Source of the DNA: Escherichia coli
GTDB lineage: Bacteria; Pseudomonadota; Gammaproteobacteria; Enterobacterales; Enterobacteriaceae
Length of the DNA: 64,000 bases
Reading direction: 5' to 3' (one strand)
NCBI RefSeq assembly: GCF_003334355.1
Contig: NZ_QOWP01000014.1
Position numbers and translations under genes: made by a program. Under the pieces are notes generated by a model. It did no database searches, was not told the origin of the DNA, and saw only the letters and a program-made list of their open reading frames with translations. The first letter of the stretch is position 1. Every line of letters begins with the position of its first letter. Shown one piece after another: positions 24,922 to 64,000 of the stretch.

Positions 24922-25081
24922 GGGTTATTCCTTATCTATCTAATAACGTTGAGTTTTCTGGAACCTGTCCCATTGAACTCTCGCCGGAAAGCTCAATAAG
25001 ACAGGTTCTACGTTTAGTTGCCGCGCTTTTATATGCGCTTGATTTACAACATCTTCTGGATAATTTTTACCAGAAAAATCA

Positions 25082-25846
25082 CTAATTCTTTCGTTGCTCC
25101 AGACGACGCAGAGAACGCTCACGGCGGCTCTCTTCACGACTTCTGTCGAGCAAAATTTCTTCGATAAAGGCCAGATGGCGATGCGATGCTTCGCGCGCTT
25201 CTTCCGGCTTACCGGCCATAATCGCTTCAAATATGCGGGTGCGGTGACTACTCACCAGCGGCAGCATCTCGCGACGCGAATAGAGCAATTCGAAGTTCTG
25301 GCGGACATTCTGGGCCAACATCGGCTCCATACACCTTAGCAGATGAAGCAGAACCACATTGTGGGCCGCTTCAGTGACAGCAATCTGATACTGGAGTACG
25401 GCGTTTGATTCCGCGTCCAGATCGCCAGACTGCTGCGCCAGCTCTATGGCGTGGTGGAGTTCACGGATGCGTTCCTTGTCTTCATCGGTACTACGCAGCG
25501 CGGCGTAATAAGCGGCGATACCTTCCAGGGCGTGTCGTGTTTCGAGCAAGTCATACTGTGACTCAGGATGGTCGGAGAGCAGCTCCACCAGCGGATCGCT
25601 GAAGCTTTGCCATAGGCTGCTCTGGACAAAAGTGCCGCCACCCTGGCGACGAAGCAACAAGCCCTTCGCTTCGAGACGTTGAATCGCCTCACGCAAGGAG
25701 GGACGGGAGACGTCAAACTGTTTTGCCAGTTCGCGTTCCGGTGGGAGTTTTTCGCCCGGGCGGAGAGTGCCTTCGAGGATCAAAAACTCCAGTTGCTGCT
25801 CAATCACATCGGAGAGTTTTGGTTGGCGGATTTTGCTGTAGGCCAT
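25082..25846 (-). CDS. pdhR: GntR-family pyruvate-responsive repressor PdhR
   Basis: ORF-track 265 aa trimmed to [20 protein letters not shown] (254 aa); PdhR-box palindrome upstream. Confidence 0.95.
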
Positions 25847-25877
25847 GAGTTCCTGTCTTAAGCCACTTGCCGAAGTC

Positions 25878-25894
25878 AATTGGTCTTACCAATT
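25878..25894. promoter_or_regulatory. PdhR operator (PdhR box) upstream of pdhR
   Basis: Perfect palindrome AATTGGTcttACCAATT about 35 bp upstream of the pdhR start; matches the known PdhR box. Confidence 0.8.
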
Positions 25895-26274
25895 TCATGT
25901 CTGTGACGCTAAAGTAACAAAGTATTCACCTTATGTCCATACAGGTTTTGATTGAAATCATGAAACTGTGCACATTTTAACAACTTGACATATATAACGT
26001 TTCAAAGTTGTAACTATGCACAAATGTAGACTTTACGTAGGAAAGGAGTTTTTAACGATTATTAAACTATAAAAATCCGAATTGAACCGATTCACTTACC
26101 AATTTTGTGATTTTTAATTCAATTAAAACGAATTTAAATTCATTCTACATATTGAGAGGGATTGAGGCTGAGCTTTACAAACGGTTTCTTTTTAAGCAAC
26201 TCATCTTCAACCATGCATAAAGCGGGTGCATTCGCTGCCGTATACCATTATTCTTGATCTGACGGAAGTCTTTT

Positions 26275-26315
26275 TGTAACAATTCAAACTTCTTTGATGT
26301 AAACAAATTAATACA
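26275..26315 (+). promoter_or_regulatory. Putative TyrR boxes in the aroP promoter region
   Basis: TGTAAAcaaattaATACA (26298-26315) resembles the TyrR box TGTAAA-N6-TTTACA; weaker TGTAAC half-site at 26275; aroP is a known TyrR target. Confidence 0.5.
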
Positions 26316-26385
26316 ACAAACGGAATTGCAAACTTACACACGCATCACTGCGTAGATCAAAAAAACAACCACCGCACGAGGTTTC

Positions 26386-27759
26386 ATGATGGAAGGTCAA
26401 CAGCACGGCGAGCAGCTAAAGCGCGGCCTTAAAAACCGCCATATTCAGCTTATCGCGCTGGGTGGCGCGATAGGGACCGGGTTATTCCTGGGTAGCGCCT
26501 CCGTAATACAGTCCGCAGGGCCAGGGATTATCCTGGGTTACGCCATTGCTGGTTTTATCGCCTTTCTGATCATGCGTCAGCTGGGTGAAATGGTGGTCGA
26601 AGAACCTGTCGCAGGCTCCTTTAGCCACTTTGCTTATAAATACTGGGGCAGTTTTGCCGGTTTCGCCTCTGGCTGGAACTACTGGGTACTGTACGTTTTA
26701 GTTGCCATGGCTGAGCTGACTGCCGTGGGTAAATACATTCAGTTCTGGTATCCGGAAATCCCCACCTGGGTTTCTGCCGCCGTATTCTTTGTGGTGATTA
26801 ACGCCATCAACCTGACCAACGTTAAAGTGTTTGGCGAGATGGAGTTCTGGTTTGCCATTATCAAAGTTATCGCGGTGGTCGCGATGATCATCTTCGGCGG
26901 CTGGCTGCTATTCAGTGGCAACGGCGGCCCGCAGGCGACCGTTAGCAACCTGTGGGATCAGGGTGGTTTCCTGCCGCACGGCTTCACCGGGCTGGTGATG
27001 ATGATGGCGATTATCATGTTCTCGTTCGGTGGTCTGGAACTGGTGGGGATCACCGCAGCAGAAGCTGATAACCCGGAGCAAAGTATCCCGAAAGCGACTA
27101 ACCAGGTTATCTACCGCATCCTGATTTTCTATATTGGTTCGTTAGCCGTTCTGCTCTCACTGATGCCGTGGACCCGCGTTACCGCCGATACCAGTCCGTT
27201 TGTGCTGATCTTCCACGAGTTAGGCGATACCTTTGTGGCGAATGCGCTGAACATCGTGGTACTGACTGCGGCGCTCTCCGTGTACAACAGCTGCGTATAT
27301 TGCAACAGCCGTATGCTGTTTGGTCTGGCACAACAGGGTAATGCGCCAAAAGCGCTGGCGTCTGTCGATAAACGCGGCGTACCGGTTAACACCATTCTGG
27401 TGTCTGCGCTGGTTACAGCATTGTGCGTATTGATTAACTATCTTGCTCCGGAATCCGCATTTGGCCTGTTAATGGCACTGGTGGTATCCGCACTGGTGAT
27501 CAACTGGGCGATGATCAGTCTGGCGCATATGAAGTTCCGTCGCGCCAAGCAGGAACAAGGCGTGGTAACTCGCTTCCCTGCTCTGCTTTATCCGCTGGGT
27601 AACTGGATCTGCCTGCTGTTTATGGCGGCGGTACTGGTGATTATGCTGATGACCCCAGGAATGGCGATTTCGGTATACCTGATCCCGGTATGGCTGATCG
27701 TGTTAGGTATCGGCTATCTGTTTAAAGAGAAAACCGCCAAAGCCGTAAAAGCGCATTAA
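26386..27759 (+). CDS. aroP: aromatic amino acid:H+ symporter (APC family)
   Basis: ORF-track 457 aa starting MMEGQQHGEQLKRGLKNRHIQLIALGGAIGTGLF, recognised as AroP. Confidence 0.95.
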   Translation: MMEGQQHGEQLKRGLKNRHIQLIALGGAIGTGLFLGSASVIQSAGPGIILGYAIAGFIAFLIMRQLGEMVVEEPVAGSFSHFAYKYWGSFAGFASGWNYWVLYVLVAMAELTAVGKYIQFWYPEIPTWVSAAVFFVVINAINLTNVKVFGEMEFWFAIIKVIAVVAMIIFGGWLLFSGNGGPQATVSNLWDQGGFLPHGFTGLVMMMAIIMFSFGGLELVGITAAEADNPEQSIPKATNQVIYRILIFYIGSLAVLLSLMPWTRVTADTSPFVLIFHELGDTFVANALNIVVLTAALSVYNSCVYCNSRMLFGLAQQGNAPKALASVDKRGVPVNTILVSALVTALCVLINYLAPESAFGLLMALVVSALVINWAMISLAHMKFRRAKQEQGVVTRFPALLYPLGNWICLLFMAAVLVIMLMTPGMAISVYLIPVWLIVLGIGYLFKEKTAKAVKAH

Positions 27760-62624: not shown

Positions 62625-63569
62625 TTAGCGTTTGCAAATTGAGACTAATTGCTCTTCCATCCACTGATGGCCTTTATCGCGCCCGGCAGCTTCATGCCAG
62701 GAGAGATAACAGGTTCTGCTGTTTTGTTTTAACGGCAGCGGTAATACCTGTAATTCTAAGGATTCAGCGAACTCTTCAGCCAGCCAACGCGGCGCAATAG
62801 CGACCAAATGCGTTTGCGACACCACGCTAAGTACGCTCATCATTGCCATGCCCTGATACGCGATACTGGCTTGCTTATCTACCGTGTCATACCAAGGTTG
62901 ACTAAATGACGCGAAACGATCGAGCGAAACCGCCGCATGTTGTTCGTTATAAACATCATGTTTCAGTAACGGGCCCTTAATTGTTGGATGATTTTTGCTG
63001 GCTACCAGCACCATTTCATCTTTAAATAATGGTACGCTGGTAAATTCAGGACGATGGAAGTCTTCATAACTAATCACAAACTCCGTTTCCTGATAACGCA
63101 GCTGATGTTCAGTGTTCTGATTTAATGAAGACTTGAACATAACATGTATATTTGGCGCAATCTGCTCAATGTGATTATAAATCTGCGAGGTCAGAATGCT
63201 GTCTAACGGGCTGCAAACACAAAGATGAAATACACGTTCACTGCTCGCGGGTTCAAAACCTGAACCAGGCAATTCATTTTGTACTAGTTGCAATGCCTGA
63301 CGAACTGAACCAAAAAGTTGAAATGCGCGAGCAGTCGGTTGAATACCACGGCCATAACGAACAAAAAGCTCGTCATTAAACATCACCTTCAGGCGTGCAA
63401 CAGCGTTACTGACCGCAGGTTGCGACATTCCCAGAACATGAGCGGCACGAGTAATGTTTTGCTCCTGCATCACGGCATCGAAAACGGTTAATAAGTTGAG
63501 ATCGACCATGCGTAGCTGTGGCTTGCTTAACTCCGCCGTCTCTGGATGATCTGTTTGTACCTCTGGCAT
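62625..63569 (-). CDS. leuO: LysR-family transcriptional regulator LeuO
   Basis: ORF-track 342 aa trimmed to [33 protein letters not shown] (314 aa), matching LeuO. Confidence 0.93.
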
Positions 63570-64000
63570 ACTTAACTCCACTGTCACACTTAACTCCCTT
63601 TCCCTTATTGGAATGCAGAGAAATAATCCTCGAGAATATGATTTATCATGCATATAAAATAAGAAAAAGGAAAATGAGTAAAATTAGGAAAACATAAAGA
63701 TACGGGTTCTGATAAAAACAGAATCCATTGCCGTGGAATGAGTCATTTACCACAGCATAATAATCCATAATGTTTTTGTTGCGAAAACAATCTAATCATA
63801 ACTACCGCGAATACTCAATCATCTACAAAATGGATTAAATGTGCTTATTTAATAATTAATTTATATATTTAATGCATTAATTCTTAACATTAATTGATCA
63901 ATAATATTCACCAAATCAATATCAAAAAAAATCGCAAAACATATAATTCAATACAAATCATCAGGATAGGTTTTGCAACGCGTGCATTTTGTCCCCTTTT
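63570..64000. promoter_or_regulatory. AT-rich leuO upstream regulatory region (probable H-NS-bound promoter region)
   Basis: Very AT-rich sequence with short A/T-tract repeats upstream of leuO; leuO is a known H-NS-silenced gene. Confidence 0.45.

Follow-up and report, generated by a model that had tools for sequence, protein, structure and literature searches.

Transcription of pdhR in Escherichia coli K-12 starts at an A located 58 nt upstream of the ATG (Olvera 2009). The PdhR box at this promoter was the top and strongest gSELEX peak, matching the consensus at 14 of 14 positions, and PdhR binding and its release by pyruvate have been published for a K-12 sequence identical to the one analyzed here (Anzai 2020). 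FNR was placed at -50.5 by ChIP-seq (peak 121,981-121,987, site 121,977; Myers 2013), and aroP/pdhR was also found by FNR ChIP-chip. A distal ArcA site is given with a score of 15.1 bits at K-12 121,868-121,888 and ChIP-seq peaks at 121,923-121,950 (Park 2013, supplements), and Cra is described as binding and repressing pdhR-aceEF-lpd in the account of Kim 2018. The divergently oriented aroP gene has promoters P1 and P2, with P2 21 bp downstream of P1 and P1 overlapping a third, opposing promoter, P3 (Rihtar 2020). As related by the same authors citing Wang et al. 1997-98, P3 transcribes toward pdhR and does so without a product in usp-negative strains (PMC7142922). TyrR binding at aroP is documented in that paper, and its deletion series puts a weak TyrR box on the aroP side of a strong one (PMC7142922). 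Published sigma-70 ChIP-seq has two peaks only, at K-12 121,650 and 122,035, and gSELEX papers place PlaR and SdiA somewhere in the aroP/pdhR spacer. The PAIusp island is always found in this spacer, where the divergent aroP promoter P3 drives its transcription (Rihtar et al. 2020, PMC7142922).

Extent and conservation of the spacer

The window (the whole 64-kb stretch of E. coli DNA that was analyzed) reads in reverse orientation relative to K-12, with aceE and pdhR on the minus strand and aroP on the plus strand. The aroP/pdhR spacer occupies 25847-26385 (539 bp), between the pdhR start codon at 25844-25846 (minus strand) and the aroP ATG at 26386; its K-12 counterpart is 540 bp long and holds no RefSeq annotation. 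The sequence was 100% identical to that of strain PSS-12 and differed from K-12 at 3 places (one T fewer at 26048/49, A/G at 26161 and T/C at 26241), none of which falls within a mapped site. GC content was 34.7% compared to 52.0% for the whole window, with a 350-bp minimum of 31.1% at 25872-26221, and the spacer was the second most AT-rich spot of the window, behind 63.6-64.0 kb. The most AT-rich stretch, 63452-63990 (21% GC over 180 bp), lies upstream of leuO in K-12. By the K-12 annotation of the same stretch, the aroP-pdhR spacer (540 bp) was the second largest complete intergenic gap, following cra-mraZ (601 bp) and preceding yacH-acnB (354 bp). No ORF of at least 60 aa lay wholly in the spacer, the largest being 44 aa (26207-26341, minus strand); a listed 265-aa ORF was pdhR mechanically extended to an upstream TTG at 25879. 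A preliminary description made from the sequence, which had called the region a 539-bp AT-rich divergent pdhR/aroP control region, was exact in its coordinates, and its gene identities, its size rank behind cra-mraZ only and its statement that no ORF of 60 aa or more occurs were all borne out.

A scan for PdhR relatives returned 80 species loci from Enterobacteriaceae and Serratia. aroP stood head-to-head with pdhR at a distance of 524-653 bp in 78/80 of these, Serratia included, and mostly at 531-541 bp; because the same spacer length recurs in 78/80 species loci, the empty state of ~540 bp was taken to be ancestral. Spacers of 640-653 bp resulted from extra blocks in the aroP 5' leader, found in Klebsiella, Raoultella and some Citrobacter. 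The block was ~110 bp long in Klebsiella and Raoultella, near window 26349-26350, and 20-60 bp were added in the leader of some Citrobacter (loci with leader blocks: L036, L068, L073 and L077). Sequences from 36 genera (the window and 35 others) were then aligned, and positions were called conserved when shared by at least 85% of sequences. By this measure 249/539 positions were conserved, comprising 139/190 on the pdhR side, 42/179 in the centre and 68/170 on the aroP side. Third-codon positions of pdhR, 57% of which were identical to the window across genera, served as a yardstick.

Promoters and operators on the two flanks

The published pdhR start site maps to window 25904. The pdhR 5' UTR and ribosome-binding region occupies 25847-25903 on the minus strand (58 nt counting the start base 25904), and 25849-25894 was mostly conserved in at least 85% of the 36 genera. 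The core promoter was placed at 25904-25939 (minus strand), with a -10 hexamer TACTTT at 25911-16 and a -35 hexamer TGGACA at 25934-39, both hexamers being the present reading of the promoter sequence in Olvera 2009; the sigma-70 ChIP-seq peak at K-12 122,035 corresponds to ~window 25903 and to this promoter. Just downstream of the start site, at ~+10 to +26 of the transcript, lies the PdhR operator AATTGGTCTTACCAATT (25878-25894), a perfect palindrome. The PdhR palindrome AATTGGTnnnACCAATT was matched at 17/17 positions there, and this was the sole match with 0-1 mismatches in the 64 kb, in agreement with the perfect PdhR box adjoining pdhR that had been described previously; one other match was found, with 2 mismatches (0.23 expected at ≤2 mismatches). 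The box was conserved in most of the 35 other genera, a few of them differing in its 3-nt spacer or at a single position.

Sites for FNR and ArcA were located at their published positions. The proximal ArcA site AGGTGAATACTTTGTTACTTT ('pdhR2' in the Park 2013 supplements) lies at 25911-25931 on the minus strand (-27 to -7) and overlaps the core promoter. The FNR site ATGATTTCAATCAA (minus strand; 25948-25961, centred at -50.5 of pdhR) matched TTGAT-N4-ATCAA at 9/10 positions, was identical to the published site and was conserved in at least 85% of genera. The distal ArcA site TAGTTTAATAATCGTTAAAAA is at 26049-26069 on the minus strand (-167 to -146; Park 2013) and consists of two direct repeats 11 bp apart. 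Both published ArcA sequences were identical in the window, with GTTAA-type direct repeats at the 11-bp distance, and TTAAC and AAAC of the distal site were kept across genera. In one CFT073 assembly (NZ_CP158446.1, L002) an IS3-family element, located upstream of pdhR at 142 bp from its ATG, separated the core promoter and FNR site from the distal ArcA and Cra sites; window 25981-25988 aligned on both sides of this element.

A palindrome of the Cra (FruR) type, TGAACCGATTCA, was found at 26083-26094 (~-179 to -190 of pdhR), 14 bases beyond the distal ArcA site. It matched the Cra core palindrome TGAAnCGnTTCA and fitted the Cra ChIP-exo motif ctgaAtCGaTtcag (both from Kim 2018), and it was the sole match to TGAANCGNTTCA in the 64 kb (0.07 expected). 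The palindrome was conserved in at least 85% of the 36 genera, was lost only in Serratia, and was kept in usp+ E. coli. Judged by sequence, 26083-26094 is a probable Cra operator, equivalent to K-12 121,843-121,854.

On the aroP side, the divergent promoter P3 occupies 26236-26272 on the minus strand (-10 TGGTAT at 26242-47, -35 AAGACT at 26267-72, start near 26235), and its -10 was conserved across genera. P1 and P2 lie at approximately 26250-26315 on the plus strand, and the sigma-70 ChIP-seq peak at K-12 121,650 corresponds to ~window 26287. The strong TyrR box TGTAAACAAATTAATACA (26298-26315) has 2 mismatches to TGTAAA-N6-TTTACA and retains G-N14-C. Matches to the TyrR pattern were not above chance in the window (13 at ≤3 mismatches versus 22 expected), and since the pattern alone does not distinguish the site, its assignment was based on conservation across genera and on the literature; on those grounds the TyrR-box-like sequences that had been noted near aroP hold. 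The sequence CGGAATTGCAAACTTACA (26321-26338), which retains G-N14-C and 8/12 consensus positions, is a probable weak TyrR box. It is 23 bp centre-to-centre from the strong box, and its ACGGAATT and CTTACA were conserved. The aroP 5' leader with the ribosome-binding site follows at 26339-26385 (plus strand), in which ACCAC.CACGAGGTTTCA was conserved, and leads to the ATG at 26386.

The AT-rich middle and its exchange with PAIusp

The preliminary description had set aside about 350 bp of very AT-rich DNA between the two flanks as carrying no assigned feature. The AT-richness was confirmed (31.1% at the minimum), and the lack of features was contradicted by the distal ArcA site at 26049-26069 and by P3 transcription into the middle, both of which are published. 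The suggestion that further regulator sites or a transcript might be found there was correct in substance (FNR, two ArcA sites, Cra control, P3), although these were already published rather than open. For the converse case, in which only the two known promoters would be active and no other binding would map to the region, sigma-70 ChIP-seq agrees with the first part (two known clusters only), and other binding events do map there.

Within and beside this middle, three conserved elements were delimited. The distal pdhR upstream region, 25962-26036 (-58 to -132), contains the conserved blocks GCACATTTTAACAAC, TTTCAAA, TGCACAAA and TTTAC. Block C, CTTTACAAACGGTTTCTTTTTAA (consensus TTTACAAATGGTTTCTTTTTT), lies at 26173-26195, ~+40 to +62 of the P3 transcript. 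Block D, GCATAAAGCGGGTGCATTC, lies at 26215-26233, immediately downstream of the P3 start, and includes 17 consecutive positions that at least 85% of genera share. Mean identity to the 35 genera was 86% for block D, 84% for -1 to -127 and 78% for block C, and blocks C, D and 25962-26036 were conserved as strongly as the known sites. In the stretch 26096-26172 (77 bp, 27% GC) mean identity to the 35 genera was 42%, and because this is below the 57% of pdhR third-codon positions, the stretch was regarded as an effectively unconstrained AT-rich spacer; in usp+ genomes PAIusp lies in or adjoining it. A direct repeat, TGAAACTGTGCACA (25961-25974) and TGTAACTATGCACA (26009-26022), was observed with its copies 48 bp apart and its GCACA cores conserved across genera. 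A perfect 12-bp palindrome, GAATTTAAATTC, was seen at 26130-26141 in the unconstrained spacer; it belongs to a 21-bp-spaced repeat (GATTTTTAATTCA / GAATTTAAATTCA) and was poorly conserved outside Escherichia. A candidate CRP site at TGTGCACATTTTAACA (25967-82) was rejected as unsupported, its TGT half varying across genera. The assignment of a PlaR box was likewise rejected, the motif giving 24 matches versus 17.8 expected at ≤2 mismatches.

The occupancy of the spacer was surveyed in 5426 complete E. coli genomes, 5424 of which matched it. The match extended over at least 80% of the length in 4364 genomes. The remaining genomes, including CFT073 and other B2-type strains, matched only the pdhR-proximal 142-190 bp and carried a ~4.1-kb block between pdhR and aroP. 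Encoded in it are an Hcp-toxin fusion of 593 aa, which is annotated as tssD, and three immunity genes accompanied by orphan toxin fragments. This block is the published PAIusp island (usp, imu1-3). In usp+ strain KC-Dl-1 (L005), 4077 bp replace window 26037-26215. That segment (179 bp, 30% GC) was present in 4365 genomes and usp in 1059, which sum to 5424, all of the matching genomes; island and empty-site segment were therefore mutually exclusive, with ~1 genome in 5 being usp+. The window analyzed here carries the empty allele. This dimorphism is the most distinctive property of the region and was absent from the preliminary description. A mobile or repeated origin of the centre was rejected, the segment being found in one place per genome in the 4365 genomes, and leftover usp or imu coding sequence in the spacer was likewise rejected after tblastn (best E-value 0.82).

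The boundaries of the exchange were compared in KC-Dl-1. Its pdhR-side flank carries ArcA-type repeats, a Cra box and a block-C-like sequence, in the same order and at matching offsets, with the block-C-like sequence at L005 1854-1875 and the imu repeat modules starting directly after it. On the aroP side a second block-C-like sequence is found at 5748-68, followed by block D at its normal distance. The Cra box alone links the centre of the window to the usp+ left flank (p = 0.02); the match of block C to the right flank was not significant on its own and serves as a positional lead only. An att-like direct repeat flanking PAIusp was rejected, the flanks, with their two block-C-like copies, being no more alike than shuffles (536/2000 scored as high, p ~0.27). 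The immunity region (L005:1875-3932) was observed to be a three-fold tandem array of ~690-bp modules. The modules are 63-93% alike and consist of an orphan toxin C-terminal fragment and an imu gene; a sequence of the TTTACCTGTTTTTTAAG type, similar to block C of the spacer, comes after every one of them.

The pdhR side of usp- and usp+ genomes was 98-100% identical right up to 26036. On the aroP side, 26216-26364 (P3, P1/P2 and the TyrR boxes) and L005:5790-5940 were 68-76% identical, with identity returning to ≥96% inside aroP, and for this reason two very different aroP promoter haplotypes were recognized, tied to the presence of the island. This suggests that the island allele came in with a diverged aroP-side flank or has been maintained with one for a long time. 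A second insertion was found in Superficieibacter sp. 1612_C1 (L060), which, when compared to S. electus (L059), has a usp homologue inserted without imu genes. The insertion replaces the ArcA block through the start of block C, with its aroP-side end abutting block C; the Cra box is deleted, and 11 nt of the block D core are repeated at the left junction as CATAAAGCAGG. An Hcp toxin was inserted here independently, at the position used by PAIusp but with another left boundary. From the boundaries in KC-Dl-1 and Superficieibacter it therefore follows that the island lies within the unconstrained spacer downstream of P3 or directly next to it.

Proposed workings, alternatives and comparison with known systems

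The spacer very probably serves aroP on one side and the pdhR-aceEF-lpd operon on the other as their ancestral control region, here in its island-free form, and would work as follows. By its identity to the K-12 sequence and the published data, pdhR would be transcribed from a sigma-70/sigma-38 promoter starting at 25904, and PdhR bound to the +10 to +26 operator would shut this promoter off unless pyruvate is present. Under anaerobic conditions pdhR would be repressed by FNR, bound at -50.5, and by ArcA, which has one site at -27 to -7 and a distal one at -167 to -146; Cra may act from the conserved palindrome at ~-180 to -190. In the published account aroP is driven by P1 and P2. TyrR with aromatic amino acids, bound to the strong and weak boxes, would direct polymerase to the opposing P3 and thereby block P1, as the mechanism is summarized for K-12. 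P3 transcripts would enter the AT-rich DNA of the middle, with no product in this strain. The middle itself consists of the distal pdhR sites and blocks C and D flanking the 77-bp unconstrained spacer. This spacer probably tolerates insertions and lies downstream of P3, which may be the reason that PAIusp is found there in ~20% of E. coli and is expressed from P3.

This account is incomplete, as blocks C, D and -58 to -132 are conserved but unexplained. They could be operators of further regulators (PlaR, SdiA or a factor so far unconnected with aroP or pdhR), which would add to the main explanation; the suggestion is a tentative one and somewhat doubtful. Their conservation at 86% (D), 78% (C) and 84% (-1 to -127) compared to 57% at third-codon positions speaks for it, as do the direct repeat with a conserved GCACA core and the gSELEX matches of PlaR and SdiA in aroP/pdhR. 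These gSELEX results are in vitro and without coordinates, the PlaR consensus was not enriched (24 versus 17.8), and part of the conservation could be due to what UP elements or promoter geometry demand at P1 and P3. The wider proposal that blocks C, D and -58 to -132 are operators of a regulator so far unassigned to aroP or pdhR and that block C is in addition a preferred recombination point for Hcp-toxin modules is unlikely. An unannotated small RNA or small protein in the middle, with P3 or some hidden promoter driving it, is very improbable. The idea draws on P3 being a genuine promoter with a K-12 transcript that has no known product, on the cross-genus conservation of blocks D and C, which make up the first ~60 nt of this transcript, and on a 24-aa ATG ORF (26140-26214, minus strand) just downstream of P3. 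Against a small RNA, Rfam gave no match over 25000-27000 at E-values up to 1, the P3 RNA folded no better than shuffles (z = -0.86), the consensus structure over 36 genera amounted to -0.4 to -0.5 kcal/mol, essentially nil, the only conserved hairpins coincided with palindromic protein sites, and a consensus scan for terminator-like sites returned 0. Against a small protein, ORFs of the centre were intact in only 0-3/35 genera, and the two ORFs intact in 26-29 genera begin at TTG within near-invariant DNA upstream of the pdhR start. The sigma-70 ChIP-seq, with its two peaks only, counts against a hidden promoter for either product. A consensus promoter scan returned 0 promoters and was uninformative, the real promoters here being non-consensus; the result shows only that these promoters depart from the consensus.

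It is extremely improbable that the AT-rich middle is not native regulatory DNA but H-NS-silenced sequence, either of foreign origin or remaining from a lost PAIusp. The segment exchanged for PAIusp (26037-26215) is only 30% GC, E. coli genomes vary unusually in the centre (454 of them show 80-95% identity), and H-NS represses P3-driven usp in usp+ strains (Rihtar 2020, PMC7142922), all of which would suit such an origin. The same length and the same conserved blocks in the same order were nevertheless found in 78/80 species loci, which marks the segment as ancestral; it resembled none of the island proteins (tblastn, best E-value 0.82) and was single-copy in every genome carrying the centre. 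For the neighbouring FNR site, no H-NS, Fis or IHF enrichment is listed, and the FNR peak was present with and without hns/stpA (Myers 2013).

The promoters, the operators and the island site are all already published, everything essential about the spacer is known, and the analysis carries little weight as a discovery. The comparison adds three small points. The spacer is ancestral and tightly constrained, with 249/539 positions conserved across 36 genera; its supposedly empty AT-rich part contains the published distal ArcA site and a Cra-type box; and the PAIusp exchange is narrowed to one freely varying stretch downstream of P3, which helps explain the constant landing place of the island and its expression from P3. 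Two conserved blocks with no known factor are also flagged.

Relative to the pdhR-aceEF-lpd promoter and operator of K-12 (Quail and Guest 1994-95), the promoter, PdhR box, FNR site and both ArcA sites were identical in the window; the difference from the K-12 pdhR region is one T fewer in the T-run adjoining the distal ArcA site (26048/49), which leaves the site intact. Relative to the K-12 aroP system of P1, P2, P3 and TyrR (Wang, Yang, Lawley and Pittard 1997-98, as cited in PMC7142922), the P3 hexamers and the strong box were identical here, the sole difference being T/C at 26241, adjoining the P3 -10. As far as that system is described there, its logic is shared, TyrR recruiting polymerase to P3 and thereby turning P1 off. 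The PAIusp locus (Rihtar, Zgur Bertok and Podlesek 2020) has the same position between aroP and pdhR, with P3 upstream of the insertion; the window differs from it in carrying the empty allele, the exchanged segment is pinned to 26037-26215 in the present comparison, and the usp+ allele keeps the ArcA and Cra sites. Divergent spacers of the acs-nrfA type (Federowicz et al. 2014, PMC3974632) similarly have a single spacer bound by FNR and ArcA, with a proposed coupling of the two divergent units. aroP-pdhR itself is one of the two worked examples in that study, and there is no difference of substance between it and the locus described here.
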